DNA of 64,000 nucleotides, taken from positions 5,939,580 through 6,003,579 of the forward strand of contig CAVRXH010000006.1 in assembly GCA_963725175.1 (NCBI GenBank), given 5' to 3'. A program made the translations under genes and the position numbers. Position 1 is the first letter of the stretch; the number at the start of each line of letters is the position of its first letter. Below, piece after piece: positions 42,657-57,716 of this stretch. Source of the stretch: an uncultured Actinomycetota bacterium (lineage in GTDB: Bacteria; Actinomycetota; Actinomycetes; Streptosporangiales; Streptosporangiaceae). The notes beneath the pieces are model-generated. The model did no database searches. It was given only the letters and a program-made list of their open reading frames with translations, and was not told where the DNA came from.

Positions 42657-43562
42657 TCAGCCCCGGTACGCCACCGTCACGTAGTCCGACGACTTCGCCC
42701 CATAGCTGGACCCGGTCACGTACACCCTGGTACCGGCCGGGCTGACCGCCACCGTGTAGGCGAAGTCGTGGCTGTTGCCCGGCCCCTGGTAGCGGGCCGC
42801 CCACAGTCGCGCCCCGGTCGCCGCGCTGTACGCCACCGTCGCGTAGTCAGACGACTTCGCCGCCTGGCTGCGCCCGGTGACGAACACCCTGGTCCCGCCC
42901 CGGCTGACCGCGATGGCGTTAGGGCTGTCGTAGCCGTACTTGCCGGCGCCGTTGTAGCGGGCCGCCCACAGCCGAGCGCCGGTCGCGGCGCGGTACGCCA
43001 CCGTGGCGTAGTCAGTCGACGTTGACCCGTCGCTGGACCCGGTGACATACACCCTGTTCCCGCCGGGGCTGACCGCCACGGCGGAGGCGTAGTCGTTGCC
43101 GTTGGCCGGGCCGTTGTACCTGGCCACCCATAGCCGCGCGCCGGTCGCGGCGTTATAGGCCACCGTCGCGAAGTCAGCCGACGCTGGCCCCTGCCTGGAT
43201 CCGGTGACGTAGACCGTGGCCCCGTCCGGGCTCACCGCCAGGGCGGCAGCGGTGCCGTCGCGGTAGCGCGCCGTCCACAGCCGCGCGCCGGTCGCGGCGC
43301 TGTACGCCACCGTCGCGTAACCAGTCGGCGTCGCCTGGCTGGACCCGGTCACGTATACCCGGAGCCCGCCCGGGCCGACCGCCAAGGCGGTGGCGGTCCC
43401 GTTGCGGTGGCGCGCCAGCCATAGCCGCGCGCCGCCCGCAGGAACCGGCCGGCCGGCCGCTCCCTCGGCGGCACCCGATGCGGCCAGAGCCGATGCCGCC
43501 AGCGCCATACCTAACGCCGCCGCGCACAATCCGCGCGCCACGTTCCCGCCCATCGGAGTCAT
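42657..43562 (-). CDS. Secreted beta-propeller repeat protein (six PQQ-like repeats of about 48 aa)
   Basis: Signal peptide, then six repeats of the unit …YATVAY.AATGARLW.ARY.G…A.AVSP.G..VYVTGSS…. Confidence 0.65.
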   Translation of the reverse strand: MTPMGGNVARGLCAAALGMALAASALAASGAAEGAAGRPVPAGGARLWLARHRNGTATALAVGPGGLRVYVTGSSQATPTGYATVAYSAATGARLWTARYRDGTAAALAVSPDGATVYVTGSRQGPASADFATVAYNAATGARLWVARYNGPANGNDYASAVAVSPGGNRVYVTGSSDGSTSTDYATVAYRAATGARLWAARYNGAGKYGYDSPNAIAVSRGGTRVFVTGRSQAAKSSDYATVAYSAATGARLWAARYQGPGNSHDFAYTVAVSPAGTRVYVTGSSYGAKSSDYVTVAYRG

Positions 43563-43888
43563 TCCCCTCGTGAGGCCAGGCGCCCGGGAACCGCGCCCAG
43601 GGCTGGCGCGCGACGTCTGCCGTCCGGGAGAACCACCGGCCTGGAATCGCCGTCACCTGCGCTGACGACCCCCGGCCGCACCGGCCGGGTTTACCAGCTC
43701 GCGCTACCAGCGTCGCACAACCACCGCGACCGCGCTGCCTCCCGCCATGCCTGCCGACGGCGCCTAGTCCTGCAATTCGGTCAGCAGGGCCGAGTCTGTC
43801 GGCAACGTGCCGGGACAGCGCGGCGGCACATGCGGCGGTCGGCCGTTGGAGTAGTGGGAAAGTGGCCGCCGAGGCCTACTCTGGTGTC

Positions 43889-44119
43889 ATGACGATGACT
43901 GTCCACCTGCACGGCGATTTGGCTGCCGCGCTGGAGGCCGAGGCCGCCCGCCGCGGCCAGAGCCCCGAGCAGGTCGCCGCCGACCTGCTCGCTGAGCGGC
44001 TGCCGCCCGGCGGGAAGCGCCGCCGCAGGCTCGCCTTCGCTGGGGTCGGCGAGTCCGCCTCCGGCCGGTCAGCCTCCGAGGCTGACCGGATGCTGGCCGA
44101 GGGGTTCGGGCGCGACTAG
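43889..44119 (+). CDS. vapB: VapB-type antitoxin (ribbon-helix-helix, Rv0623-like C-terminal motif)
   Basis: N-terminal RHH MTVHLHGDLAAALEAEAARRGQSPEQVAADLLAERL. C-terminal motif RRRLAFAGVGESASGRSASEADRMLAEGFGRD matches the 47805-48059 paralogue. An alternative GTG start is at 43862. Confidence 0.6.
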   Translation: MTMTVHLHGDLAAALEAEAARRGQSPEQVAADLLAERLPPGGKRRRRLAFAGVGESASGRSASEADRMLAEGFGRD

Positions 44120-44221
44120 GTGCTGATCGTGGACACCGGGCCACTGGTCGCGGCGGCCGGTCTCCACATTCGGAGACCGGCCTTAAACCCGGACTGTGCG
44201 TGGGCGGTACTGGGATTGAAC
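44116..44221 (+). pseudogene. Truncated vapC (PIN toxin) remnant: 35 codons that read into the 3' end of tRNA-Val(GAC)
   Basis: VLIVDTGPLVAAAG… parallels the intact VapC N-terminus MTMLIVDTGPLVAYLN at 48040. The ORF terminates inside the tRNA acceptor/T-arm sequence. Confidence 0.45.
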
Positions 44222-44272
44222 CAGTGACCCCTACCGTGTCAGGGTAGTGCTCTCCCGCTGAGCTAACCGCCC
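44201..44272 (-). tRNA. tRNA-Val (anticodon GAC)
   Basis: Hand-folded: acceptor GGGCGGT/ACCGCCC, anticodon arm CTACC-CTGACAC-GGTAG, T-arm ACTGG-TTCAATC-CCAGT. Confidence 0.9.
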
Positions 44273-44276
44273 GCAG

Positions 44277-44348
44277 AGGCGGAAGCGGGAATCGAACCCG
44301 CGTAAGGGGCTTTGCAGGCCCCTGCCTAAGCCACTCGGCCATTCCGCC
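44277..44348 (-). tRNA. tRNA-Cys (anticodon GCA)
   Basis: Hand-folded: acceptor GGCGGAA/TTCCGCC, anticodon arm GGGGC-CTGCAAA-GCCCC, T-arm GCGGG-TTCGATT-CCCGC. Confidence 0.9.
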
Positions 44349-44429
44349 ACAAGCCGCCCCGGGGAGCTGGCCTGAGTATCTCTGAGCCGTACTGGCCGTC
44401 GACTCGCGAGACGGCTTCCGGCGCTTCCG

Positions 44430-44502
44430 AGCGGACGACGGGATTCGAACCCGCGACCCTCACCTTGGCAAGGTGATGCTCTACCAACTGAGCCACGTCC
44501 GC
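44430..44502 (-). tRNA. tRNA-Gly (anticodon GCC)
   Basis: Hand-folded: acceptor GCGGACG/CGTCCGC, anticodon arm TCACC-TTGCCAA-GGTGA, T-loop TTCGAAT. Confidence 0.9.
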
Positions 44503-44800
44503 GTACTGCCAGCCGCTCCGGGCTGGCCCGGAGTACCACTGGCGTGCGTTCAGAACTGTAGCCGATCCTGACCGGCCCGCAAACTCGGCTGGGCCAGGGG
44601 ACCCGCGACCAGGGCGGGCAGACGGGGCATGCAGGGCGGTCGCCGCGCGTCAGGCCCGTTTCGTCCCAATTCCCTTCCCTGCCCCGCCCGCCGGGCCAGC
44701 GTCCCCGGAGCGAGCGCCGCAGCGACAGCGAACCTAGGTGCCAGGCCAGCAATCACGGCCCCCATCGCGGGAACTTATGCCCGGATGGGAGGCTGCTCCC

Positions 44801-46339
44801 ATGCGAACTGTGATCGTCTCCGGCGACGCCCTGACCGTGGATGACGTCGTTGACGTCGCACGCGGTGCCGCGCGCGCCGAGCTTGGCCCTGACGTGGCCA
44901 GGCGAATGGAATTCAGCCGGGATGTCGTGACGGCAGCGATCGCCGGTGACAGCCCGGTTTACGGCGTGAACACCGGCTTCGGGGCACTGGCCGACACCGC
45001 CGTCGGCGAGGCTGACCTGAGCAAGCTCCAGCGGGCGATCATCGTCTCGCACGGCGCGGGAGTCGGGCAGCCCCTGGACGACGCCGCGGTCCGGGCCATC
45101 CTGCTGCTCCGCGCCAGGACCCTGGCGGCCGGGCTGTCCGGGGTGCGCACCGACCTGCCGCGCCGCCTGCTTGAGCTGCTCGACCGCAACCTGCTGCCGG
45201 TCATCCCCGGCAAGGGCTCGGTCGGCGCGTCCGGGGACCTGGCGCAGCTCGCGCACCTGGCCCAGCCGCTGATCGGCGCGGGCCGGCTGCGCGCCGAAGG
45301 GGACGGGCCGCAGGGCCGGCCCGCCAGCGAGGTGCTGGCCGAGCATGGCATCGAGCCGCTGGTTCTCGGCCCGAAGGAGGGCCTGTCCCTGGTCAACGGC
45401 ACCGAGCCGATGCAGGCCCTGCTCGCGTTCTCGGTGCACGACGCGGCGCTGCTGGCGCAGGCCGCCGACGTGGCCTGCGCCATGTCGATCGAGGCGCTGC
45501 TCGGCACGGACCGCCCCTATGACGAGCGGGTCCAGGTGATCCGGCCGCATCAGGGCCAGCAGGACAGCGCCGCGAACCTGCGGGCGCTGCTGGCCGGCTC
45601 GCAGCTGATGGCCAGCCACCGGCATAGCCGCCACGCGGTCCAGGACGCCTACTGCCTGCGCTGCGCTCCCCAGGTGCACGGCGCCGTCCGGGACGTGCAC
45701 CGCTTCGCCAGGGGCGTGATCGACACCGAGCTGGGCGCGGTGGTGGACAACCCGGTCATCGTCGCCGACGGCGAGGTCATGACGACTGGAAACTTCCACG
45801 GCGAGCCGCTGGCGTTCGCGGCCGACATGCTCGGCATCGCCGTCGCCGAGTTCGCCAGCATCAGCGAGCGGCGGGTGGACCGGATGCTGGACCCGGCGTT
45901 CTCCCGCGGCCTGCCCGCGTTCCTGGCCCCGGACGCGGGCACGAACTCCGGCTTCATGCTGGCCCAGTACACCGCCGCATCCCTGGTCAGCGAGAACAAG
46001 GTGCTCGCCCATCCCGCCAGCGTCGACACCATCCCGACCTCGGGGAAGCAGGAAGATCACGTGTCGATGGGCTGGACGGGGGTCCGCAAGCTGCGGGAGA
46101 TCGTGGAGAATGTCCGGGCCTGCCTGGCGGTCGAGATCCTCTGCGCCGCCCAGGGCGTCGGCCTGCGTGCCGACATCGCGGCGCCGAGCGCCCCGGTCGC
46201 GGCGGTGCACGAGCTGATCAGGGCCCACGTGCCGAGCATGGATGTCGATCGCGAAGTTTCCGATCAGATAGCCGCCATCGACCAGCTACTGCCAGATATA
46301 TGCGCAACGGCCGCGCAGGCGTGCGGCGGGCTCAGATAG
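44801..46339 (+). CDS. Histidine/aromatic amino acid ammonia-lyase (MIO-dependent)
   Basis: ATG with a GGGAGG RBS. The MIO-forming triad sits in GSVGASGDLAQLAH. Full-length HAL/PAL fold. Confidence 0.85.
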   Translation: MRTVIVSGDALTVDDVVDVARGAARAELGPDVARRMEFSRDVVTAAIAGDSPVYGVNTGFGALADTAVGEADLSKLQRAIIVSHGAGVGQPLDDAAVRAILLLRARTLAAGLSGVRTDLPRRLLELLDRNLLPVIPGKGSVGASGDLAQLAHLAQPLIGAGRLRAEGDGPQGRPASEVLAEHGIEPLVLGPKEGLSLVNGTEPMQALLAFSVHDAALLAQAADVACAMSIEALLGTDRPYDERVQVIRPHQGQQDSAANLRALLAGSQLMASHRHSRHAVQDAYCLRCAPQVHGAVRDVHRFARGVIDTELGAVVDNPVIVADGEVMTTGNFHGEPLAFAADMLGIAVAEFASISERRVDRMLDPAFSRGLPAFLAPDAGTNSGFMLAQYTAASLVSENKVLAHPASVDTIPTSGKQEDHVSMGWTGVRKLREIVENVRACLAVEILCAAQGVGLRADIAAPSAPVAAVHELIRAHVPSMDVDREVSDQIAAIDQLLPDICATAAQACGGLR

Positions 46340-46496
46340 GCCAGTCACCCCGCGGGTAATTCCGGCGGAAAAGGCGCCGGTCCCGATATTGCGGGGGCGG
46401 GGCGGGGCGCCAGTGACGTGAGTGGCATTCTTACATGCGCCGGCCCGGCTCTCCAGCGAACCGGGCCGGGGTGCCGGCCGAGGGCCGGCGAGGTGC

Positions 46497-46919
46497 TCAG
46501 GCGCGCCAGAGCAGCTCGTCAAGCTCGGTGTCGACGTCGAGGAACTCGCCCTCGCGCCCGGCCGAGATCATGTCAAAGGTCCTGGTGAGGAACGCGGCGG
46601 TCGCCTCGCGCGGCGCCTCGAAGTGTGCCTCGCCGAACGGTGAGGACAGGGCCAGGTTCAGCACCGGCCTGCCGCGCTCATTCGACGGCCAGACCTGGAC
46701 ATCGCCCTCGCCGGCCGGGCCGTCGAGGCCCGCCGTGAGCAGCTCGCGTGCGAAGATCCACTCCACCGGCTCGTCGGCGCCGACGTGGAACGACATGCGG
46801 ATCGCATACGGGTCGTCGGCGCTGTAGCACAGGCTGGCCACGAGGGGAACGGCTCCGTGCTCGGGAACCACCAGGCTGAGACCAAGCTCAGCGGTCACGG
46901 TAGCGCTGCTGTTCATCAT
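46497..46919 (-). CDS. ssgB: SsgA-like protein (SALP), SsgB-type sporulation-specific cell-division protein
   Basis: MNSSATVTAELGLSLVVPEHGAVPLVASLCYSADDPYAIRMSFHVGADEPVEWIFARELLTAGL…VQVWPS…LNLALSSPFGEAHFEAPREATAAFLTRT is closely similar to actinomycete SsgB. A ~650-bp lower-GC leader lies upstream. Confidence 0.75.
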   Translation of the reverse strand: MMNSSATVTAELGLSLVVPEHGAVPLVASLCYSADDPYAIRMSFHVGADEPVEWIFARELLTAGLDGPAGEGDVQVWPSNERGRPVLNLALSSPFGEAHFEAPREATAAFLTRTFDMISAGREGEFLDVDTELDELLWRA

Positions 46920-47584
46920 CGGGTCAGACCTTCTGCCTTGTCGTGTCCCGGATTGCCGGGCTTCATTATTGGTGTGCGTTTGCCATCACTTATGGCACTT
47001 AACGTGCCGCTGGAATGTCATCGCAGGAAGTAGATTCCGCGAATTGAGTCGCTCGTAACCTCGGTCAGCGTTCAACAAAACCGGCTTCACTAGCCCCGAC
47101 CTGGTCAAACGCTTCGGCAGATAAAACACGCTTTCCGGAGCGTCCTGTTCCATCCGGCCCCACGACCCAATGTGACCTTCGTCTCACTCGGGCCTGCTCC
47201 GGCGCGTCGCGCTTGCGGATCTGGCTCGCATGAGTGCGGAACAGCCTGCTGGGCAGGGGATTCCAGTCCGCCGCGACAGGCTGCCCGGAGACGACCTCGA
47301 ACTAACACAAAGGCCATAAATAGTAATAACTGGACAGGGCTATTGCCGCCGTCTCTGCCGTGACCAGTCATTCCCCGGGGTGATCTATGGGGCTCTGCGG
47401 GGGCCGCCGGCCGCCCGGAGGCGGTGGCCGCAGAGTTTTTTCCGGATCTCGCGCGGCGGCCCGGTCCTGGCACGGGCACGGCGGCCGGAAGCGGGACTAA
47501 CCGCCCGGGCCGGGCGCGGCGCCGCCCGTCCGCCGGATGCGCTAATCTGAGACCGCCGTCACGGACCCGGTCAGGCCGTGCCAC

Positions 47585-47656
47585 GGGCGATTGGCTCAGC
47601 GGAAGAGCGCTGCCTTCACACGGCAGAGGTCGCTGGTTCGAACCCAGCATCGCCCA
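47585..47656 (+). tRNA. tRNA-Val (anticodon CAC)
   Basis: Hand-folded: acceptor GGGCGAT/ATCGCCC, anticodon arm CTGCC-TTCACAC-GGCAG, T-arm GCTGG-TTCGAAC-CCAGC. Confidence 0.9.
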
Positions 47657-47672
47657 CACAGCATCGCCCACC
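47645..47672. repeat. 14-bp tandem duplication of the tRNA-Val(CAC) 3' end (att-like scar)
   Basis: CAGCATCGCCCACA at 47645-47658 is immediately repeated as CAGCATCGCCCACC at 47659-47672. Confidence 0.7.
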
Positions 47673-47690
47673 AGCACTAGTTCACCGACA

Positions 47691-47724
47691 GGTCCCGCCC
47701 GGCACGCCGGGCGGGACCTTTTCT
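47691..47724 (+). terminator. Rho-independent terminator after tRNA-Val(CAC)
   Basis: GGTCCCGCCCGG-cac-CCGGGCGGGACC followed by TTTTCTC. Confidence 0.65.
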
Positions 47725-47804
47725 CATCTGCGGGGCAGCCGCTAATCATGTTGCCCTCGCTAGCGGCTATCTGGACCGGCACCGGAGAACGCGATGGGAA
47801 GCTC

Positions 47805-48059
47805 ATGCAGGCAGGCCGCTCCGTGCTGACGTACGCTGGGTTTGTGACAGCGGCTGACTACAGCGATCTCCACGAGCTCATTGACCGCCTGGAACCAGAA
47901 CAGGCCGAGGAGCTGCGTGAGCACGTACTCAGGCTGATTCACCCGGTTCGGAGCCGGTTTAAGGTGCTGCGGACCTTCAGCGGCCCCGAGGCCAACCTCG
48001 GCGTCAGGGCGCGGGAAGTCATGCGCGCTGACTTCGAGCGTGACGATGCTGATCGTTGA
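47805..48059 (+). CDS. vapB: VapB-type antitoxin (Rv0623-like C-terminal motif)
   Basis: The C-terminus RSRFKVLRTFSGPEANLGVRAREVMRADFERDDADR parallels the 43889 paralogue. It overlaps vapC by ~14-20 nt. GC content is about 60%, below the flanking ~73%. Confidence 0.6.
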   Translation: MQAGRSVLTYAGFVTAADYSDLHELIDRLEPEQAEELREHVLRLIHPVRSRFKVLRTFSGPEANLGVRAREVMRADFERDDADR

Positions 48060-48456
48060 TACCGGCCCGCTCGTCGCTTACCTGAATCACAACGATCCAG
48101 ATCACGCTCGCTGCGCCGAACTTCTGGACTCGCGCACCGATGATCTTCTCGTGACCCCCTACGTCATCACCGAGGCCTGTTACCTCGTCGGGAAGTACGT
48201 CGGACCGGAGGCCGAGATCAACCTGGTTGAGGCGCTCGCCGCGGGGGACCTGAGCCAGATTGATGTCCCGGCAGGAGATCTGATCCGCATGGCCGAACTC
48301 ATGCGGCAGTACATCGGCTTCCCGCTGGGTGTTGCCGATGCGTCGGTCATCGCCACCGCCGAGCGCCTTCGGGCCACCGAGGTGGCCACACTGGACCGGC
48401 GGCACTTCCACGCGGTACGACCGGCCCACGTGACGGCGCTGAAGCTGCTTCCTTAA
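48040..48456 (+). CDS. vapC: VapC toxin (PIN-domain ribonuclease)
   Basis: MTMLIVDTGPLVAYLNHNDPDH… carries the first conserved PIN Asp (D7). …ITEACYLVGKYVGP…GVADASVIATAERLRATEVATLDRRHF matches the PIN fold. Confidence 0.8.
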   Translation: MTMLIVDTGPLVAYLNHNDPDHARCAELLDSRTDDLLVTPYVITEACYLVGKYVGPEAEINLVEALAAGDLSQIDVPAGDLIRMAELMRQYIGFPLGVADASVIATAERLRATEVATLDRRHFHAVRPAHVTALKLLP

Positions 48457-48533
48457 GGCTGTCGGGGCTGCCGTCCGATAGGAGAGTTGGCGGGGCGGGC
48501 AGGGAAATCGGGCAGACGGGACCGGCTGGTCCT

Positions 48534-49976
48534 GTGCAGACTGGCGGCGTGCTGCTGACGATCTCCACGACTCATGCTCCGGCGTCCGATCTCGGGTACC
48601 TGCTGCATAAGCACCCCGGCCGGGTTCAGGCGTTCCCGCAGTCGGTGGGCACCGCGCACGTCTTCTACCCGGCGGTCAGCGACGAGCGCTGCACGGTGGC
48701 GCTGCTGCTGGAGGTTGACCCGGTGGCGCTGGCGCGCGGCCGGGCGGGCCGGCGCGGCGAGGCGTTCCCGCTGGGGCAGTACGTCAGCGACCGGCCCTAT
48801 GTCGCGTCCAGCATGCTCGCGATGGCGCTCAAGGATGTCTTCCGCACGGCGCTGACCGGGCGCTGCGACGCCCGTCCGGAACTGGCCGCCGCGGCGATCC
48901 CGCTGGAGATCGGAATCCCGGCGGTGCCCAGCCGCGGCGATGCGGACCTGCCCCGGCGGCTGTTCGGGCCGCTGGGCTGGCAGGTCGCGGCGGCTCGCGG
49001 GCCGCTTGACCCGGAGATCCCGGACTGGGGCGACTCGCCGTACGCCGATGTCCGGCTCACCGGCGAGCTCCGGCTGGCCGATGCCCTGAACCACCTGTAC
49101 GTGCTGCTCCCGGTGCTGGACGACGCCAAGCACTACTGGGTCAGCGAGGACGAGATCGGCAAGCTGCTCCGCGCGGGCGAGGGCTGGCTGCCGTCGCACC
49201 CGGAGCAGGAACTGATCACCCGGCGGTACCTGTCGCACCAGCGGGACCTGGCCAGGTCGGCGCTGGCCCGGCTGGCGGAGGCCGACGACGCCGGGCCGGC
49301 CGAGTTCGACAACGCCCCGGACGGCGCGGTCGCGCTCGATGACCCGCGGCGGCCAGGCGAGCTGGCCGGGCAGCGGCGGGCGGCGGTGCTCGCCGCGGTG
49401 CTGGCGTCGGGGGCGCGCCGGGTCGGTGACCTGGGCTGCGGCGAGGGCCTGCTGGCGGCGGACCTGCTGGCCGCGCCGGGCATCGAGCAGGTAGTGGCCA
49501 CCGACGTGTCGGCGCGGGCGCTCCAGATCGCCGCGCGGCGGCTGGGCCTGGACCAGATGCCGGACCGGCAGCGGCAGCGCCTGGAGATCTTCCAGTCGGC
49601 GCTGACCTACCGCGACGACCGGCTGGCGGGCCTGGACGCCGCCGTCCTGATGGAGGTGATCGAGCACATCGACCCGCCGCGGCTGGACACGCTGGAACGG
49701 GTGGTTCTCGGCCACGCGGCCCCGGCCACGGTGATCATCACCACCCCGAACGCGGAGCACAACGTGCTGTTCGACGGCCTGCGAGCGGGCGGGCTGCGGC
49801 ACGCGGACCACCGGTTCGAGTGGACGCGCGAGCAGTTCAGGGCCTGGGCGAGCCGGGCGGCGGCCGCCTACGGGTACACGGCCGCGTTCGCCGGAATCGG
49901 CCCCGACGACCCGCGGGTCGGGCCGCCGACCCAGCTCGCCATCCTGACCAGGACCGGGGCGGAGGTGCCCGCATGA
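48534..49976 (+). CDS. hen1: 3'-terminal RNA ribose 2'-O-methyltransferase Hen1 (bacterial)
   Basis: The C-terminal methyltransferase region reads VGDLGCGEGLLAADLL…VLMEVIEHIDPPRLDTLERVVLGHAAPATVIITTPNAEHNVLF. The N-terminal Hen1 domain is present. The stop overlaps the pnkp start (ATGA). Confidence 0.8.
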   Translation: MQTGGVLLTISTTHAPASDLGYLLHKHPGRVQAFPQSVGTAHVFYPAVSDERCTVALLLEVDPVALARGRAGRRGEAFPLGQYVSDRPYVASSMLAMALKDVFRTALTGRCDARPELAAAAIPLEIGIPAVPSRGDADLPRRLFGPLGWQVAAARGPLDPEIPDWGDSPYADVRLTGELRLADALNHLYVLLPVLDDAKHYWVSEDEIGKLLRAGEGWLPSHPEQELITRRYLSHQRDLARSALARLAEADDAGPAEFDNAPDGAVALDDPRRPGELAGQRRAAVLAAVLASGARRVGDLGCGEGLLAADLLAAPGIEQVVATDVSARALQIAARRLGLDQMPDRQRQRLEIFQSALTYRDDRLAGLDAAVLMEVIEHIDPPRLDTLERVVLGHAAPATVIITTPNAEHNVLFDGLRAGGLRHADHRFEWTREQFRAWASRAAAAYGYTAAFAGIGPDDPRVGPPTQLAILTRTGAEVPA

Positions 49977-52558
49977 GCGCGGAACTGGGTGTCCCCGAGC
50001 TGAGCCTGATCGTGCTGATCGGCGTCACGGGGTCGGGAAAATCGACGTTCGCCCGGACGCGCTTCCGGCCGACTGAGGTCATCTCCTCGGACTTCTGCCG
50101 CGGCCTGGTCGCCGACGACGAGAACGACCAGTCGGCGACGCCCGAGGCCTTCGAGCTGCTCTCCTACATCGTCGGCAAGCGCCTGGCGGGGGGCCGGCTG
50201 ACCGTGGTGGACGCGACCAGCGTCCAGCCGGGCGCCCGCAGGCCGCTGGTCGCCCTGGCCAGGGAGCACGACGTGCTGCCGGTCGCGATCGTGCTGGATG
50301 TCCCCGAGGGCACCTGCGCGGCCAGGAACGCGGCGCGGCCGGACCGGGACTACGGCAGCCAGGTGGTCCGCCGCCAGCACGACCAGCTCCGGCGCGGTCT
50401 CAGCGGGCTGCGCCGGGAGGGCTTCCGCGCGGTCCACGTGCTGCGCGGCACGGCCGAGATCGACGCGGCGAGCATCACCAGGACCCGGCTGTACAACGAC
50501 CTGCGTGCCGAGAACGGGCCGTTCGACGTCATCGGCGACGTGCACGGCTGCCGCGCCGAGCTGGAAGGGCTGCTGGCCGAGCTGGGCTACGAGATCACCA
50601 GGGACGGCCAGGGCCGTGCCACGGGCGCGCACCACGAGGGCCGCCGGGCGGTCTTCGTCGGGGACCTGGTGGACCGGGGCCCGGACACTCCCGGCGTGCT
50701 GCGGCTGGTGCTGGGGATGGTCTCCGCCCAGGACGCGTACTGCGTGATGGGCAATCACGAGAGCAAGCTGCTGCGGGCCCTGCGCGGCAGCAAGGTCCAG
50801 GTCAGTCACGGCCTCGCGCAGTCGCTGGCGCAACTGGAGTCGGAGCCGCAGGAGTTCAGGATCGAGGTTGAGCGGTTCCTCGACGGGCTGATCAGCCACT
50901 ACGTCTTTGACGGCGGGCGGCTGGTGGTGGCGCACGCGGGCCTGATCGAGCGGTACCAGGGCCGCGCGTCGGGACGGGTCCGGTCGTTCTGCCTGTACGG
51001 CGACACCACGGGGGAGACCGACGAGTACGGGCTGCCGGTCCGCTACCCGTGGGCCCGCGACTATCGCGGCGCGGCGATGGTGCTGTACGGGCACACGCCG
51101 GTGCCCGCGCCGGAATGGGTCAACAACACGCTCTGCCTGGACACCGGCTGCGTGTTCGGCGGCCGCCTCACGGCGCTGCGCTATCCCGAGCGGGCGATCG
51201 TCTCGGTGCCCGCCACCGCCGTGCACTACGAGCCGGCCAGGCCGTTCCCGGCCAGCCCGGAGGCGGGCGGCGAGACCGGGCCGGAGGCCGGCGGGGCGGT
51301 GGCGGGCCGCCGGGAGCCCGACGTGCTCGACATCACCGACGTCACCGGGACGCGGGTCATCGAGACGGCGTACCAGCCGCGCATCGGGGTGCGCGAGGAG
51401 AACGCGGCGGCGGCGCTTGAGGTGATGAGCAGGTTCGCGATCGATCCCCGCTGGCTGGTGTACCTGCCGCCGACCATGAGCCCGGTCGCCAGCTCGGCCG
51501 AGCCCGGCCTGCTGGAGCACCCGGCGCAGGCGTTCGACTACTTCAGGACCGCCGGCGTCGGCCAGGTCGTGTGCGAGGAAAAGCACATGGGCTCGCGGGC
51601 GGTCGCGCTGGTCTGCCGGACGCCGGGCGAGGCCAGCGCCAGGTTCGGCGTGCCGGACGGCCAGGCGGGAGCGGTGTGGACCCGCACCGGGCGGGCGTTC
51701 TTCCGCGACGAGCTGACCGGGCAGTTCACCGGCCGGCTGCGGGAGGCAGCCGAACGGGCCGGGCTGTTCGTCGAGCTGGACACCCCCTGGCTGCTGTTCG
51801 ACGCCGAGCTGATGCCGTGGAGCGCCAAGGCCGGCCCGCTGCTGCGCGACCAGTACGCGGCGATCGGCGCGGCGGCCCGTGCCGCGCTCCCGGCCGCCGT
51901 GGCGACCCTGGAGCAGGGGGCAGCGGCCGGGCTGGACCTGGGCGAGTTGCTCGGCCGCATGAAGGGGCGGGAGGCCCGCGCCGCCGCGTTCACGGCTGCC
52001 TACCGGCGGTACTGCTGGCCGGTTGCGGAACTAGCTGGCATCAGGTTCGCGCCGTTCCAGCTCCTGGCCAGCGCGGGGGCGGTGCACCAGGAGCGGCCGC
52101 ACGGCTGGCACCTGGCCCTGGCCGACCGGCTGGCCGGCGCCGACCCGGAGCTGATCGCGGTCACCCGGCGGACTGTCGTGGACGTCACGGACCCAGGCTC
52201 GGTCGCGGCGGGGTGCGAGTGGTGGGCCCGGCTGACCGGGGACGGTGGCGAGGGCATGGTGGTCAAGCCGGCCCGGAACCTGGCCAGGGACCGCAAGGGG
52301 CTGGTGCAGCCGGGCCTGAAGGTGCGCGGCCGGGAGTACCTGCGGCTGATCTACGGCCCCGACTACACCGAGCCGGCGAACCTGGAACGGCTGCGCACCC
52401 GGAGCCTGGGCCACAAGCGCTCGCTGGCGCTGCGCGAGTACGCGCTCGGCCTGGAGGCGCTGGACCGGCTAGCCAGGGGCGAGCCGCTGTGGCGAGTACA
52501 CCAGTGCGTCTTCGCCGTCCTGGCCCTCGAATCCGAGCCAGTCGACCCGCGCCTGTAG
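49973..52558 (+). CDS. pnkp: Polynucleotide kinase-phosphatase/ligase Pnkp (RNA repair)
   Basis: N-terminal P-loop kinase GVTGSGKSTFA. A calcineurin-type phosphatase follows (FDVIGDVHGC, GDLVDRGPD, GNHE). The C-terminal nucleotidyltransferase/ligase domain carries the lysine motif EEKHMGSRAV. Confidence 0.85.
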   Translation: MSAELGVPELSLIVLIGVTGSGKSTFARTRFRPTEVISSDFCRGLVADDENDQSATPEAFELLSYIVGKRLAGGRLTVVDATSVQPGARRPLVALAREHDVLPVAIVLDVPEGTCAARNAARPDRDYGSQVVRRQHDQLRRGLSGLRREGFRAVHVLRGTAEIDAASITRTRLYNDLRAENGPFDVIGDVHGCRAELEGLLAELGYEITRDGQGRATGAHHEGRRAVFVGDLVDRGPDTPGVLRLVLGMVSAQDAYCVMGNHESKLLRALRGSKVQVSHGLAQSLAQLESEPQEFRIEVERFLDGLISHYVFDGGRLVVAHAGLIERYQGRASGRVRSFCLYGDTTGETDEYGLPVRYPWARDYRGAAMVLYGHTPVPAPEWVNNTLCLDTGCVFGGRLTALRYPERAIVSVPATAVHYEPARPFPASPEAGGETGPEAGGAVAGRREPDVLDITDVTGTRVIETAYQPRIGVREENAAAALEVMSRFAIDPRWLVYLPPTMSPVASSAEPGLLEHPAQAFDYFRTAGVGQVVCEEKHMGSRAVALVCRTPGEASARFGVPDGQAGAVWTRTGRAFFRDELTGQFTGRLREAAERAGLFVELDTPWLLFDAELMPWSAKAGPLLRDQYAAIGAAARAALPAAVATLEQGAAAGLDLGELLGRMKGREARAAAFTAAYRRYCWPVAELAGIRFAPFQLLASAGAVHQERPHGWHLALADRLAGADPELIAVTRRTVVDVTDPGSVAAGCEWWARLTGDGGEGMVVKPARNLARDRKGLVQPGLKVRGREYLRLIYGPDYTEPANLERLRTRSLGHKRSLALREYALGLEALDRLARGEPLWRVHQCVFAVLALESEPVDPRL

Positions 52559-52724
52559 TCGTCAGCGTGCTCGCGCGCCGCGAACCTCCCGCATTCCCGC
52601 GCGCCGTGGACCGATCGCCCCGTCATCCGCCAACTGGAAAGGAAAACCCGGCCCACAAGGAGCCGGGTGGTATATAGGGCAACTATAACGCGCTTACCGT
52701 GAGCCTGCTTCCCGGTGACGGGAA

Positions 52725-53456
52725 CTACCAGCCATCTGGGCGCTGGTACTGGCCAGCCGGATTCGGGAGCTGATGGTTCTTGAGGTCGGCAGCTGTCAGT
52801 CTGGCCCACCAGTGCCGCCCGGCCCCGGCTGCGGGATCTCCGCGCAAATCACCAGCCAGGTAGTTGCGCGAAGGATTGATCAGGCCGACCGGGACGTGCA
52901 GCCGGGCTTGCTCGACGGGGAACCGCAGGTCACTGTCATTGGAGATGACAAGTGCCGCGTCGACAGCACCGCCCAGAACGTCCAGCAGCAGGTGCGCTGC
53001 CACGTTGACGTCAGAGCCCTTTTCCTCGCGATTGGCATACGACACCATGAATACCGCATCCGAGACAGGGCCGCCTCGGCCGTCCTGGACCATCACCGGC
53101 CAGGTGGGTCCGACCAGTTCGGGCCGCCCCTGCTGGTCTTTCACCGCGAGCGGGGCAGTCTTCACCCGAGCCACATAAGTTCCATACTCGATGTGGTCGA
53201 CGCTGCCCGTCGCTAGCAGGGCCTTGAGGTAGACGTCCTGATCAGCCTGCCCGGAGGGGTTTGAGACGCCGTCGATCCGAGCGGTGCGGTACACCACCCT
53301 GTCCACCTGCGCGCCGCGCCAGCTCGCTCGCCGCCCTGTCAGGTCCGACGCCAGCGTGCGCAGGTCCAGCCAGCGCCATCCCGGAGTGCTCCGGCCGCAC
53401 AGGCCTCGGGCACCGTAGTACACATTGAAGCCATCCACGTACACACCGACGCGCAT
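52725..53456 (-). CDS. NYN domain-containing protein (PIN-like LabA/NYN ribonuclease fold)
   Basis: [16 protein letters not shown]… carries the first conserved Asp. …[15 protein letters not shown]…[10 protein letters not shown] matches the NYN acidic residues. Confidence 0.75.
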
Positions 53457-53722
53457 TGACGGAAGCTAGCAGCAGCTACCGACACGCGCTCGCAGTAACG
53501 GGCGGGTGGCCCGGTGGTGCGCGAAGCTGAGCAAGGGAGGCCGCACGGTAGCGGCGATTTGTCCCGGCGCCCGCTCCCGGCCGTTTGGTTTGGTTACGTT
53601 GTGTGAAAGTGGCAAAGCTATGTGTAGTCATAGCAGTGCCGGCATCGTGCTGATCCGCTGATCTGCCTTACGAGCGTCGGCGCGAGAGAAGTCAGCTGCT
53701 GCCGCGCTTGTGAGGACGCGCC

Positions 53723-54040
53723 GTGCCCGGACCACTCGCCGCCGCGACCCGCGTCATCGGCGGTCACTCGGCCAAGGTGGCGCTCTCGCTGTCCGCGCGG
53801 CAGATTGTCATCATCTGCGTCATCCTGGGCGCGTTCGCCGTCCTGGTGATCCTGCCGGTGCTGGGCGGCATGCTGGTGGACGTGGTCAGCGCTGGCGCGG
53901 CCAAGTTCGGCGTGGCGGTGTTCTTCATGGGCCTGGGCACGCTGGGCCTCGGGCTGATCGCCAGCGTGCAGTTTCTCACCGTCATCGGGGCCTGCCTGGT
54001 CGGCGCCGTCGTCCTCGGCGCGATCTTCGACAACTACTAG
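53723..54040 (+). CDS. Small hypothetical membrane protein (three TM segments)
   Basis: GTG start. Hydrophobic segments IVIICVILGAFAVLVILPVLGGML, VAVFFMGLGTLGLGLIA and VIGACLVGAVVLGAIF. Confidence 0.4.
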   Translation: MPGPLAAATRVIGGHSAKVALSLSARQIVIICVILGAFAVLVILPVLGGMLVDVVSAGAAKFGVAVFFMGLGTLGLGLIASVQFLTVIGACLVGAVVLGAIFDNY

Positions 54041-54142
54041 CCCCCTCGCGCTGCCCGCGTCGGCGTCCATTTCTTAAAGATTTGGTAAAGGGCGCTGACC
54101 GGCCGAAACTTGCGGCATCGCTCCTGCATACTCGATGCGGTG

Positions 54143-54562
54143 ATGACTCTTCGGATTCAAATAGTCACAAAGCGTAGTATTCGCTGCGCCCTTGCCTCGA
54201 CGGGGCTGGCTGCCGCCCTGGCGCTGACCGGCTGCGGCGGAAGTTCCGCGCCGTCAGCGAGCGCCCAGCCGAGCACCAGCTCCGCGTCTAGCACGGCGCA
54301 CGCGGCCGCCGACTCGGTGGTCATTCACATGTTCGCGTTCCACCCCGGCACCCTGACGGTGTCGCCGGGCGCGACGGTCAAGGTCCGCAACGCGGACTCG
54401 ACGACGCACACGCTGACGGACAAGGCCAATCCGAAGCTGTTCAGCACCGGCGATATCGGCCCCGGTCAGACCAGGACCTTCAAGGCGCCGACCAAGCCCG
54501 GAAGCTATCCGTTCTTCTGCCAGATCCACCAGTACATGACCGGGACCCTCGTCGTGAGCTAG
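54143..54562 (+). CDS. Cupredoxin-like blue copper lipoprotein (plastocyanin/amicyanin fold)
   Basis: Lipobox ALTGCGGS. Putative type-1 Cu ligands are H (…STTHTLT), C (FFCQIH), H and M (QYMTG). Confidence 0.7.
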   Translation: MTLRIQIVTKRSIRCALASTGLAAALALTGCGGSSAPSASAQPSTSSASSTAHAAADSVVIHMFAFHPGTLTVSPGATVKVRNADSTTHTLTDKANPKLFSTGDIGPGQTRTFKAPTKPGSYPFFCQIHQYMTGTLVVS

Positions 54563-54596
54563 CCGATCAGGGCCTCCGCAACACGAGGGAGGGCAC

Positions 54597-55469
54597 ATGG
54601 AACTTGACGAGGCCGCGCTGCGCGGGCTGACCGAGGAATCGCGAGATACCCATGCCGACGCGATCCGCGCGATCTCCGAACCTCTGGACGACATGGTCGA
54701 CCTCGGCCGCCAGGCGAGGTCGCGAAACGCCCTGGACCCGGACGAGAACGCCAGCTTCGCCGGCCTGAACCGGCGGCAGCTCGCGGCCACCGCCCGGCGG
54801 GGCGGCGGCCTGCTCGCCGCTACCGGAGTCCTCGCGGCGCTCGCCGACTTCATCGGCAGCCCCGCCTTCGCCGCGTCGGGAACCGACATCCAGGTGCTGC
54901 AGACGGCCTCCTCGATCGAGGTCCTGGCCATCTCCACCTACAAGACCGCGCTCACCCTCCCGTACATCGGCGGCAGCTCCGCGAACCCGGTCATCAAGGC
55001 CTTCGCGACCACCACGAAGAAGCAGCACCAGGACCACCTGGCGGCCTTCCAGGCCGCGACCACCGCGCTGGGCGGGAAGAAGCAGACCAAGCCCGACCCG
55101 AAGTTCGTGCCGGTGGTGGACAAGGCCGTCAAGTCGATCACCAAGGCCTCGCCGGCCAAGGGATCGCTGCTGGTCGTCGGCCTGGCCCTGGAGCTGGAGA
55201 ACATCGCGGCGGAGACCTATGTCAACAACATGAGCCTGCTCGCCGACGCGAACGCGAAGAAGGTCACCGCGAGCATCATGGGCGTGGAGGCTCAGCACGT
55301 CGCCATCCTGCTGGCGGTCCGCGCCCTCCTGAAGGCGGGCGACGCGGCCGACATCACGCTGCCCCCGCCGACGGCCAAGCTCCCGGCCGCCGCCGGCAAG
55401 GTCGGCTTCCCGAACGCCTTCTACCCGACGAGCAGCGCTGCCCCGGCAGCTCAGGGAGCAGTGAAATGA
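54597..55469 (+). CDS. Ferritin-like domain protein (DUF4439 family) with a Tat signal
   Basis: Tat-like NRRQLAATARRGGGLLAATG. Two ferritin-like helix pairs: IEVLAISTYKTAL…KQHQDHL and LELENIAAETYVNN…VEAQHVAIL. Confidence 0.65.
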   Translation: MELDEAALRGLTEESRDTHADAIRAISEPLDDMVDLGRQARSRNALDPDENASFAGLNRRQLAATARRGGGLLAATGVLAALADFIGSPAFAASGTDIQVLQTASSIEVLAISTYKTALTLPYIGGSSANPVIKAFATTTKKQHQDHLAAFQAATTALGGKKQTKPDPKFVPVVDKAVKSITKASPAKGSLLVVGLALELENIAAETYVNNMSLLADANAKKVTASIMGVEAQHVAILLAVRALLKAGDAADITLPPPTAKLPAAAGKVGFPNAFYPTSSAAPAAQGAVK

Positions 55470-56305
55470 CCGCCATCGATCCCGGCTCGCACCTGTCAGA
55501 CGGCGAGATCCGCAGCATGACCCAGGATCTGGACGCCCTGCATCACGACCTCACCCTGCCCGCCCTGACGGACAGCCTCAGCGAGTGGGCGGAGGAGATC
55601 CACGAGCGCGATGCCTCCGGCGAGGACGAGCAAGAGGATGCCGCGCAGTCGGCGTTCCTCGCCCGCCGCAGGTTCCTGGTCGCCACGGGCGGCATCGCGG
55701 GCGCGGCCCTCATCGCGGCCTGCGGCAGCTCCGCGGCGCCCCAGTCAGGCTCCAGCCCGTCCGGCTCCGCGCAGGCGACGAGCGGCGGCGAGGGGCAGCA
55801 GCTCAGCGGCGACCTGCGGGTGGTCGCGATGGCCGCGAGCCTGGAGAACTCCGGCATCGCGACCTACAAGTCCGGCCTCAAGGCGGCCAAGGCCGGCAAG
55901 CTCGGCACGGTACCGCCGGCCATCGTCACCTTCGTGGAGACGGTGATGGGCCAGCACCAGGACCATCAGAAGGCGTGGAACGCCGTGCTCACCTCGGCGG
56001 GCAAGCAGCCGGTGACCACCGTTGATCCGGTGATCCAGCCCACCATCAACACGGCTTTCGGGAAGGTGACCACGGTCACCGGGCTGGCCAAGCTTGCCCT
56101 GCAGGTCGAGAACATCGCGGGCGAGACCTATCAGAACGGGCTGTCGGTCATCAAGAGCCCGGCCGGGATCAAGACCGCCGCCTCGATCCAGCCAGTCGAG
56201 TTCCAGCACGCCGCGATCCTGTCCTACGTCCTCGGCAAGTACCCGGTGCCCAGCGCCTTCACCGGCACCACCCTCGCCAGGCCGCCGAGCGACTACCGCA
56301 CCTAG
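55466..56305 (+). CDS. Ferritin-like domain protein (DUF4439 family) with a Tat signal; paralogue of the preceding gene
   Basis: ATGA overlap with the preceding gene. Tat motif ARRRFLVATGG. Conserved LENSGIATYKSGL…GQHQDH…QVENIAGETYQNG…VEFQHAAIL. Confidence 0.65.
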   Translation: MTAIDPGSHLSDGEIRSMTQDLDALHHDLTLPALTDSLSEWAEEIHERDASGEDEQEDAAQSAFLARRRFLVATGGIAGAALIAACGSSAAPQSGSSPSGSAQATSGGEGQQLSGDLRVVAMAASLENSGIATYKSGLKAAKAGKLGTVPPAIVTFVETVMGQHQDHQKAWNAVLTSAGKQPVTTVDPVIQPTINTAFGKVTTVTGLAKLALQVENIAGETYQNGLSVIKSPAGIKTAASIQPVEFQHAAILSYVLGKYPVPSAFTGTTLARPPSDYRT

Positions 56306-56408
56306 GGGCACGGCGAAGCGGGCGGTGGCCGGCAGCGGATCGTGAGCGCTGACGGCCGCCGCCCGCCGCGCGCCGCAGCGGAATGCAGCGCGGTGTCATG
56401 CGCAGATG

Positions 56409-56468
56409 AGCAACCAAGGGTTGCGCTTGAGGTCACGCCTCGCTACAGTGATGTGCAACCAAACGTTG
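56409..56468. promoter_or_regulatory. Two 15-bp palindromes (GCAACCAAGGGTTGC at 56409-56423 and GCAACCAAACGTTGC at 56454-56468) upstream of the SRPBCC-ArsR operon; putative ArsR operators
   Basis: Both inverted repeats are read directly from the sequence. They are spaced 45 bp apart and lie 27-86 bp upstream of the ATG at 56495. Confidence 0.4.
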
Positions 56469-56494
56469 CGAAAAGTGGCCGAGAGGCGGGGGCT

Positions 56495-56956
56495 ATGGAA
56501 TACGGCTCGATCGAGCGGGAGATCCGGATCGACGCGCCGCCGGAGATCGTCTTCGACGTGGTGAGCGACCCGGTGCACGTCCAGCAGTGGTGGCCGGACG
56601 AGGCCAGCTACGAGGCGGTGCCGGGCAGCTCGGGGGAGATCGTCTTCATCAGGGACGGCGAGCGGGTCCCGATGGCCTTCCAGGTGGTCGACGCGGTCCC
56701 GCCCCGGCTGTTCTCGTTCCGCTGGACGCAGCCAGACGGCGAGCCCGCCAGGCCGGACAACTCTTTCCTGGTGACCTTCGATCTGGAGCCGGCCGGCGGC
56801 GGCACGCTGCTGCGGATGACCGAGACGGGCTTCCGGGAGCGCGGCTGGGAGGCCGCCGTCCTGGAGGAGGCCTACCGGGACCACGCCAGCGGCTGGGACC
56901 ACTACCTGCCGCGGCTGGCGCCCTACATCCAGAAGTACCTCGAATCGGCGCGATGA
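56495..56956 (+). CDS. SRPBCC family protein (AHSA1/polyketide-cyclase-like fold)
   Basis: IEREIRIDAPPEIVFDVVSDPVHVQQWW… is typical of the Aha1/BPI SRPBCC fold. The gene is coupled to the ArsR gene (ATGA overlap). Confidence 0.75.
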   Translation: MEYGSIEREIRIDAPPEIVFDVVSDPVHVQQWWPDEASYEAVPGSSGEIVFIRDGERVPMAFQVVDAVPPRLFSFRWTQPDGEPARPDNSFLVTFDLEPAGGGTLLRMTETGFRERGWEAAVLEEAYRDHASGWDHYLPRLAPYIQKYLESAR

Positions 56957-57348
56957 GCAGCGTCGTGACCAACACCGGCGCGTTGAGCACCGTGGACGAC
57001 GCGCTCTGGTCCGCGGTGGGCGACCCGACCCGGCGGCGGATGCTCGACCTGCTGCTCGCCGAGGGCAGCGGGACCGCGACCAGCCTGAGCGCGCGGCTCC
57101 CGGTGACCAGGCAGGCGGTCGCCAAGCACCTCGTGGTGCTGGACCGGGCCGGCCTGGTGCGCGGCGTCACCGCCGGGCGGGAGAAGCAGTACCGAGTCGA
57201 CTCCGCGCAGCTCGCGCGGGCCGTCGCGCAGCTCGCCGAGGTGGGCGCCAGCTGGGACCGGCGGCTGCGGCGGATCAAGGAGATCGCCGAGGCCATCGGG
57301 GAGCGGGCCCGCGAGCAGGCCGAGAAGGACGATGGGAAGGAGCAGTGA
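56953..57348 (+). CDS. ArsR/SmtB family transcriptional regulator
   Basis: HTH region ALWSAVGDPTRRRMLDLLLAEGSGTATSLSARLPVTRQAVAKHLVVLDRAGLV. Confidence 0.8.
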   Translation: MSSVVTNTGALSTVDDALWSAVGDPTRRRMLDLLLAEGSGTATSLSARLPVTRQAVAKHLVVLDRAGLVRGVTAGREKQYRVDSAQLARAVAQLAEVGASWDRRLRRIKEIAEAIGERAREQAEKDDGKEQ

Positions 57349-57350
57349 CA

Positions 57351-57500
57351 ATGCCAGACATCCTGCACCGCATCGGCGTCGAGGGATCGACGTCCAGCAC
57401 CAAGCGGGGCTCGTTCCTGATGAGCCTCAAGCAGCTCCTGGAGACCGGCGAAGGGGCACCGGACCCCCGCGACGTGCACATCAGCGACTGGCACTGAGCC
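57351..57500 (+). CDS. Small ORF (49 aa), tightly coupled downstream of the ArsR gene
   Basis: ATG at 57351 lies 2 nt after the ArsR stop, with GGAAGGAG upstream. It encodes MPDILHRIGVEGSTSSTKRGSFLMSLKQLLETGEGAPDPRDVHISDWH and is not in the supplied ORF track. Confidence 0.3.
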
Positions 57501-57716
57501 GTTCGACTGGCAATGAGCCGTTCGCAGTTCCCGGCGGAGTCCTTCTCCCGAAGGGCTCCGCCGGAACGCGTGCCGGCCGCGCGGTGGTCCGCGCTTATGC
57601 ACAGCGGACGGGCCGGATCAAGGAGCAAATGGTGTGCTACGCCATTCTCTGGGCGACACGTTACTGATCGTTTACGCCGGCAATAGGTTCCCCGCTAATC
57701 GAGTCGGGTACGCACC

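Follow-up and report, generated by a model that had tools for sequence, protein, structure and literature searches.

We analysed a 64,000-nucleotide (nt) stretch of high-GC actinobacterial DNA, hereafter the window, from an uncultured member of the Actinomycetota. The window carries the relic of a VapBC-type toxin–antitoxin (TA) module beside a tRNA-Val(GAC) gene. The antitoxin gene, vapB1, is intact. The toxin gene, vapC1, is reduced to 13 codons. An initial annotation had drawn attention to this module and had assigned tRNA-Val(GAC) to the opposite strand, where ARAGORN and Rfam also place it. The features of the locus are listed below. L-numbers, here and throughout, are labels of relatives' or homologue-bearing contigs.

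43842–43888, + strand: conserved stretch upstream of vapB1 (putative promoter/operator); homology to L081 and L082 starts here
43889–44119, + strand: vapB1, intact orphan antitoxin gene; 76 codons, stop TAG
44120–44159, + strand: vapC1 remnant, the first 13 codons (VLIVDTGPLVAAA) plus 1 nt; 13/13 identical to the intact L082 VapC
44155–44159: deletion junction, a single retained GGCCG (5-bp microhomology)
44155–44182, − strand: terminator-like hairpin of the tRNA-Gly/Cys/Val operon; 11-bp stem, 6-nt loop
44200–44272, − strand: tRNA-Val(GAC); ARAGORN, Rfam tRNA 67 bits

The antitoxin belongs to a family with 237 homologues at E ≤ 0.001, and identity is 70–91% among the 120 matches listed. A metagenome scan with VapB1 gave at least four loci. 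The gene caller used an alternative start, GTG at 43862, which extends the protein to 85 aa. No Pfam or NCBIfam model matches the VapB1 family above threshold. Matches to DNA-binding folds fall below the cut-off (PF01402, RHH_1, E 0.034; FitA-like RHH, E 0.076), and PF01402 appears in the precomputed annotation of two VapB1 homologues. By analogy with known antitoxins, VapB1 would bind DNA with its N-terminal part and the toxin with its C-terminal tail. We examined 22 contexts of VapB1 homologues besides the window. In 17 of these, a PIN gene of 130–136 aa abuts or slightly overlaps the antitoxin stop. Across unrelated contexts, DNA homology runs from ~46 bp before the vapB ATG to ~4 bp past the vapC stop. 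Given these limits and the toxin gene in 17/22 contexts, the cassette is a self-contained unit of ~695 bp. We infer, from its conservation, that the stretch at 43842–43888 may have a promoter/operator function; a sigma-70 consensus was looked for there and none was found.

As in the 17 intact cassettes, the toxin frame starts directly at the antitoxin stop: the TAG of vapB1 (44117–44119) abuts the GTG of the vapC remnant. From 44120 the sequence reads GTG CTG ATC GTG GAC ACC GGG CCA CTG GTC GCG GCG GCC. The open reading frame (ORF) continues to 44227, for 35 codons in all, and its end lies antisense to the last 27 nt of tRNA-Val(GAC). The initial annotation had taken all 35 codons as vapC and the module as fused into the tRNA. 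The overlap is real but only codons 1–13 (44120–44159) derive from vapC. DNA homology to L081, L082, L094 and L095 ends at 44159. Codons 14–35 are read-through of the hairpin (44155–44182) and of the antisense tRNA. The hairpin is native to the tRNA operon. Hence, the remnant spans 40 nt, with no fusion to the tRNA. The 35-aa ORF has no Pfam match and is too short for a PIN domain with its conserved acidic catalytic residues. With its toxin down to 13 codons, the locus is no longer a TA system.

Several observations identify the hairpin as part of the tRNA operon. An 18-nt spacer separates it from tRNA-Val(GAC). The 66-nt stretch that contains it (44140–44205) folds at −37.3 kcal/mol (z −4.8). 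Fourteen sequences keep it directly 3' of tRNA-Val(GAC); compensatory changes occur at 7 of 16 pairs, and CTTCTTGATCATTTG-like sequence follows it in 12 of the 14. A consensus promoter and terminator scan of 43600–44300 called nothing; the hairpin escaped the scan because the vapC remnant has replaced the T-tract.

The 35-aa ORF begins VLIVDTGPLVA. By BLASTP, these 11 residues are identical (11/11) to the N-terminus of VapC2, the intact toxin of a second module in the window. At the DNA level, 44121–44151 matches 48047–48077 at 26/31 positions (84%), the best direct repeat in 43500–48600, and by our reading the differences fall at third codon positions. The similarity to vapC2 that the initial annotation had reported is confirmed over these residues. 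The intact partner toxins of VapB1 homologues match VLIVDTGPLVAAA at 13/13 residues. Could the remnant nevertheless be a fortuitous resemblance, and vapB1 an unrelated small ORF? Only 13 codons remain, and Pfam and NCBIfam matches of VapB1 are sub-threshold or absent. Against this, contiguous DNA homology of 86–94% to intact cassettes runs from the upstream stretch through vapB and 40 nt into vapC, and sister contigs are collinear. We give this explanation next to no weight.

The sister contigs retain the intact gene. L094 and L095 are metagenome contigs from different samples with 94–96% DNA identity to the window. They are collinear with it from an upstream beta-propeller gene through to tRNA-Val and tRNA-Cys. 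At the site of the window's remnant, both carry an intact vapC of 136 aa that is convergent with the tRNA cluster. A third contig has the same gene order, VapB then a 136-aa PIN protein. In a global alignment of window positions 43561–44400 with L095 there are two large differences only, L095-only blocks at 368–690 and 1087–1511; blastn agrees. The second block, of 425 bp, extends from a GGCCG in vapC codons 12–14 (1087–1091) to a GGCCG at the base of the hairpin (1512–1516). Because L094 and L095 are collinear on both sides and have an intact vapC, we conclude that the window carries a 425-bp deletion. Lost with it were vapC codons 14–136 and a spacer of 48 bp. Judged by its endpoints, the loss of vapC1 is a classic microhomology-mediated deletion. 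Secondary gain of the 425 bp in L094 and L095 is implausible, as it would need to recreate a conserved ORF. The first block (~320 bp) holds a fragment resembling an attachment (att) site and is likewise missing from the window. The decay of this TA module is clean and fully reconstructed: one microhomology deletion accounts for it, and comparison with an intact sister allele fixes both ends.

We considered whether the deletion is an artefact, produced by a collapsed assembly or by a minority variant recorded in a metagenome-assembled genome (MAG), with the real genome carrying an intact vapBC. The source contig is 7.33 Mb, the relatives are MAG-like and all three sister contigs are intact. However, the junction is clean, with 5 bp of microhomology, and repeats this short would not collapse an assembly. 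Similar deletions have also arisen independently. Alongside an intact vapB, L089 (6237–6320) has 28 vapC codons left, and L099 (957–1190) has an in-frame internal vapC deletion between short repeats. An artefact is very unlikely. The locus is a case of an intact antitoxin gene with no cognate toxin in cis. Compared with the VapB of L094 and L095, vapB1 is 98.7% identical in protein, with seven synonymous and one non-synonymous (R67Q) codon differences. This 7:1 ratio may predate deletion of the toxin gene.

The second module lies 3' of the other tRNA-Val gene. The relevant features, and those between the two tRNA-Val genes, are listed here with a third PIN-like gene.

44276–44502, − strand: tRNA-Cys(GCA) and tRNA-Gly(GCC), upstream in the tRNA-Val(GAC) cluster; ARAGORN, Rfam
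44738–46339: histidine-ammonia-lyase-type gene (hutH), between the two tRNA-Val genes
46497–46919, − strand: ssgB, between the two tRNA-Val genes
47585–47657, + strand: tRNA-Val(CAC); ARAGORN, Rfam
47645–47671, + strand: tandem 13-nt repeat CAGCATCGCCCAC; the tRNA-Val(CAC) 3' end and a second copy 1 nt on
47690–47725, + strand: intrinsic terminator 3' of tRNA-Val(CAC); 14-bp stem, 100% complementary, then TTTTCTC
47805–48059, + strand: vapB2, antitoxin of another family; 84 aa as called
48046–48456, + strand: vapC2, intact PIN toxin, 136 aa; PF01850 E 1.2e-15
1–147, + strand: C-terminal 48 residues of a third PIN-like gene, cut by the window edge; Pfam PIN E 0.0063 (below cut-off), NCBIfam VapC E 0.0026

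Both tRNA-Val genes thus have a vapBC module on their 3' side, as the initial annotation stated, one intact with its PIN gene (47805–48456) and one degraded (43889–44159). It had further proposed that the two antitoxins are paralogues with a common C-terminal motif. This relationship could not be confirmed. BLASTP of VapB1 against VapB2 gave no alignment at E ≤ 100. An hhalign comparison of the family alignments (21 and 20 sequences) gave a probability of 0.25% and E 0.24, with 14 C-terminal residues aligned. The motif is essentially the VapB1 family's own conserved tail. VapB2 has 82 homologues and is without a Pfam domain; homologues of 72 aa suggest that it starts at the GTG at 47844. The toxins are related, since the L095 VapC and VapC2 share 50% identity over 136 aa (E 2e-41). 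Base composition differs too. GC content at third codon positions (GC3) is 0.73 for vapB2 and 0.77 for vapC2 versus 0.91 for vapB1, and GC dips at 47650–48400. Accordingly, vapBC1 and vapBC2 are not the same cassette: their antitoxin families are unrelated and their toxins, although homologous, are only 50% identical. The PIN fragment at 1–147, the further partial vapC of the initial annotation, does have weak PIN and VapC matches, but it is truncated by the window edge. It shows no BLASTP similarity to VapC2 and hence represents a different subfamily.

These data bear on the proposal that one mobile vapBC cassette, itself targeting tRNA-Val 3' ends, inserted twice, with one copy degraded by fusion to the tRNA. 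Both modules do lie 3' of a tRNA-Val gene, and their toxins, 50% identical and of one PIN subfamily, have N-termini identical over 11 aa. However, the antitoxins are unrelated, and DNA similarity between the modules is confined to 31 nt at 84%. Cassette homology stops 46 bp upstream of vapB and 4 bp downstream of vapC, and the cassette has neither terminal repeats nor a recombinase. The junction, which lies at the hairpin, is separated from the tRNA by 40 nt. Moreover, VapB1-type cassettes occur elsewhere. In L081, L099 and L100 they lie beside tRNA-Ile(GAT), DUF3566 and gyrA, with an integrase fragment in L099; in L082–L089 they lie in DNA rich in insertion sequences (IS) and serine recombinases, with no tRNA nearby. 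A tRNA-Ile repeat flanking the L081 cassette was looked for and none was found. The cassette was essentially absent from a phage collection and from a plasmid collection, which gave two distant PIN matches in Streptomyces plasmids. Hence, the cassette itself does not target tRNA-Val, and its double insertion is very unlikely. What stands of the earlier idea of repeated insertion is that two different cassettes entered insertion hot spots.

To place the modules in a wider context, we collected 80 relatives at species level with SsgB as anchor (SsgB identity 63–86%). Most are Streptosporangiaceae or unclassified Actinomycetota MAGs. Nearly all have the backbone tRNA-Val(CAC)-ssgB-(hutH)-tRNA-Gly-Cys-Val(GAC). 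In 77 of the 80, ssgB adjoins tRNA-Val(CAC), and the tRNA-Gly/Cys/Val cluster is kept in most relatives with contigs that extend to it. Sequence directly 3' of both tRNA-Val genes, by contrast with this backbone, varies in nearly every relative. None of the 80 has a VapB1 homologue, and a VapC2-like gene lies within 10 kb only in L015, L044 and L063. The modules are thus polymorphic for presence and absence among genomes that share the backbone, and the arrangement is not fixed everywhere, which is the outcome that the initial annotation had predicted for insertion.

The closest relatives, L026 and L028, lack window positions 47658–57700. In both, the L,D-transpeptidase gene (window 57717–59087) lies ~1 kb from tRNA-Val(CAC). 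Since synteny resumes only at this gene, 47658–57700 is a variable insertion of ~10 kb. At its proximal end lies vapBC2. Beyond are an RNA-repair operon, 78 bp after vapC2, that encodes Hen1 (PF12623) and Pnkp (TIGR04075, 1372 bits) at 48534–52558, an NYN-like gene (52725–53456, E 0.001), and genes for a cupredoxin, two ferritin-like proteins, SRPBCC/AHSA1 and ArsR. An integrase was looked for in the insertion and not found. On the other side, window positions 1–44159 have no synteny with the relatives' tRNA-Val(GAC) flanks and contain no mobility genes. The composition of vapBC2 (GC3 0.73–0.77) is atypical compared with hutH (0.90); that of vapB1 (0.91) is not. Taken together, the comparison of flanks supports reading the modules as insertions rather than ancient fixed synteny.

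Relatives also reveal what inserts at these sites. Local alignment with shuffles detected partial copies of the tRNA-Val 3' half (~30–45 nt, anticodon loop to acceptor end) 3' of tRNA-Val genes in at least 11 relatives (L002, L029, L044, L048, L058, L061, L063, L070, L071, L075 and L077) and in L095. The L095 copy, at 519–562, spans 43 nt and corresponds to positions 28–71 of tRNA-Val(GAC), with 39/43 identical and a score of 33 versus a shuffle maximum of 11. The vapBC1 module of L095 lies between tRNA-Val(GAC) and this copy ~1 kb away. Rfam at E ≤ 1 did not pick up the partial tRNA copies of L095, and found no extra RNA in window positions 43000–48600.

A further stretch of interest lies between the vapC stop and the hairpin (L095 1478–1508; L094 ~780–810). 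By manual alignment, 24 nt there match the D-arm region of tRNA-Val(GAC) at 21/24 positions. The cassette thus seems to be flanked by another fragment of the tRNA, one that falls inside the deleted 425 bp. We considered whether the D-arm-like and 3'-half fragments of L095 are halves of one split tRNA gene, but their positions on the tRNA probably overlap and the middle aligns poorly.

The fullest example is L044. Here, an element of ~8.6 kb runs from tRNA-Val(CAC) to a 45-nt repeat (591–635) and encodes, in order, a tyrosine integrase (PF00589), HTH_31, HATPase_c_2, DUF218, VapB2 and VapC2 orthologues (71% and 88% identity) and DUF2637. In L063, tRNA-Val(GAC) and a 42-nt repeat (14781–14822) bound an islet of 1.07 kb with an antitoxin-like ORF and a PIN gene; the 139-aa PIN product shares 49% identity with VapC2. 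In L104–L107, a VapB2-like gene lies ~450 bp 3' of tRNA-Val(CAC), along with a truncated PIN gene; the VapC2-like gene there is homologous over 86/136 residues only, and a second, N-terminal VapC fragment lies upstream of the antitoxin. L102 has a VapBC2-like pair near an excisionase-like gene and an integrase. Integrase genes or fragments are close to tRNA-Val(GAC) in L075, L038, L047 and L048, and an integrase adjoins the tRNA in L044 and L075. In L075, a 167-aa cysteine-rich ORF (15980–16483) opens the element-like sequence seen 3' of several tRNA-Val genes and is followed by a C-terminal integrase fragment (PF00589); from its sequence, the 167-aa product looks endonuclease VII-type.

Both tRNA-Val genes seem to serve the same elements. 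L063, L064, L066, L070 and L071 have a tRNA with a GAC anticodon and the 3' half typical of tRNA-Val(CAC) (GGTCGCTGGTTCGAACCCAGCATCGCCCA). The element-like sequence after those tRNAs also occurs 3' of tRNA-Val(CAC) in L026, L056, L073 and L077. This suggests that one element family may use both genes. We set aside the idea that the T-arm variant of the window's own tRNA-Val(CAC) (GCTGG..CCAGC) marks an element-derived 3' half, since tRNA sequences differ at many positions among relatives. The repeat that the initial annotation gave as 14 bp at 47645–47672 does consist of tandem copies of the tRNA-Val(CAC) 3' end, each of 13 nt, the second ending at 47671. The two exact copies of CAGCATCGCCCAC compare with 0.3 expected in the window. 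The second terminates in CCA, and L020 has a partial copy resembling the repeat 3' of its tRNA. The tandem repeat may be an att scar.

We consider it likely that the vapB1 locus is the decayed end-state of a vapBC cassette, the cargo of a tRNA-Val-targeting integrative element. The modules can be read as element cargo because relatives have tRNA-Val 3'-half repeats, integrases and vapBC islets. Integrative elements targeting the similar 3' halves of both tRNA-Val genes would repeatedly have delivered PIN-type TA modules. The elements would then have decayed, with the TA module among the last survivors. In the window lineage, one 425-bp deletion between GGCCG pentamers removed most of vapC1, and a second indel of ~320 bp would have removed the att-like fragment. 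This leaves vapB1, with its conserved upstream region, as an orphan antitoxin. The intact vapBC2, a different cassette, would have been acquired independently in the same way. Read like this, the locus explains the accumulation of TA genes next to tRNA genes: they are cargo of integrative elements.

A number of observations weigh against this scenario. Integrase and transposase domains are absent from window positions 29.7–43.6 kb and 52.7–62.8 kb, and tblastn of the L102 integrase against the window gave no match. An att-like second copy of either tRNA-Val 3' end was not found in the window, the 13-nt tandem repeat of CAGCATCGCCCAC aside. As the window has no integrase, transposase or att repeat, the element origin of its modules rests on the relatives. 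The hairpin 3' of tRNA-Val(GAC) is present in relatives with no vapBC (L026, L028), so the arrival of vapBC1 need not have involved a crossover inside tRNA-Val(GAC). The att-like fragment of L095 could stem from another event, and the ~320-bp indel has no outgroup to give its direction. Both L094 and L095 are short metagenome contigs that may come from another species than the window, and the deleted allele could be one variant in the population from which a MAG was assembled. Finally, the GC3 of vapB1 (0.91) is host-like, matching that of hutH (0.90), so any transfer was old or from a similar genome.

A different view of the adjacency is that this VapC subfamily acts on, or is co-regulated with, tRNA-Val, and that selection keeps the genes together. 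The initial annotation had raised it as an alternative. The PIN subfamily does recur near tRNA-Val (the window, L063, L094/L095 and L104–L107), and many VapCs are tRNases (PMC5175351). An RNA-repair operon, Hen1-Pnkp, also directly follows vapC2. However, among solved and characterised proteins the deleted toxin is closest to Mycobacterium tuberculosis VapC26 (PDB 5X3T; E 6.4e-20, full length). This enzyme cleaves the sarcin-ricin loop of 23S rRNA (PMC5175351), which lends no support to tRNA-Val as the target. Orientation differs between the modules, convergent with the tRNA at GAC and co-directional at CAC, and in 77 of the 80 relatives neither tRNA-Val gene has such a module within 10 kb. 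Att repeats and integrases already account for the adjacency. Hen1-Pnkp was looked for in the other VapBC2 contexts (L044, L102–L104) and not found, and in L020 it lies near tRNA-Val(CAC) with no vapBC. The proximity of a ribonuclease toxin to an RNA-repair operon looks coincidental. We regard a functional link to tRNA-Val as highly improbable, less so only than chance resemblance of the remnant.

As in M. tuberculosis VapBC26 (Rv0581/Rv0582), the antitoxin gene of the sister alleles directly abuts a 136-aa PIN gene; unlike VapBC26, vapC1 of the window is down to 13 codons. The repeats of ~43–45 nt from tRNA 3' halves that bound inserts in L044, L063 and L095 resemble those of tRNA-targeting elements with tyrosine integrases and of their integrase-less remnants, islets like cis-mobilizable elements (CIMEs) that TA cargo stabilises, as do the L044 integrase beside the tRNA and the hypervariable flanks. 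The window departs from such elements in having neither integrase nor att repeat, only the 13-nt tandem repeat at tRNA-Val(CAC). In keeping with orphan antitoxins and anti-addiction modules, an intact antitoxin ORF and its upstream region are kept while the cognate toxin is deleted, here and in L089 and L099. Cognate cassettes also circulate on IS- and recombinase-rich DNA, as the anti-addiction hypothesis would have it.

For an addiction module, we infer that toxin loss before antitoxin loss is the only viable order of decay. As a putative ribbon-helix-helix-type DNA-binding antitoxin, VapB1 probably still represses its own promoter. It could also neutralise cognate VapC from related elements, an anti-addiction role; otherwise, it is on the way to loss. 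A bolder version is that the ~1-kb islets of L095 and L063 are integrase-less mini-elements, kept by addiction and mobilised in trans by tRNA-Val integrases, with orphan VapB1 as selected immunity. This is speculative and we doubt it, although we rate it above an assembly artefact. If true, immunity would explain why the toxin and not the antitoxin is lost recurrently, in the window and in L089 and L099 among the 22 other contexts.

For annotation, the ORF 44120–44227 is best marked as a 40-nt vapC pseudogene fragment, vapB1 as an orphan antitoxin, and the flanks of both tRNA-Val genes as integration hot spots. The biology is that of ordinary mobile elements and TA modules, and matters little beyond annotation.

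Two neighbouring regions showed further features. Directly upstream of vapB1, 42657–43562 (− strand) encodes a secreted protein with ~7 ATVAYxAATGARLW repeats and PQQ_2/SBBP beta-propeller matches; the gene is common to the window and L095. The tRNA cluster itself is also subject to change. In L013, L026, L046, L053 and L057, an insertion of 0.5–5 kb separates tRNA-Cys from tRNA-Val(GAC); elsewhere, the two are 2–4 nt apart. In L073, the entire Gly-Cys-Val tRNA cluster is duplicated.

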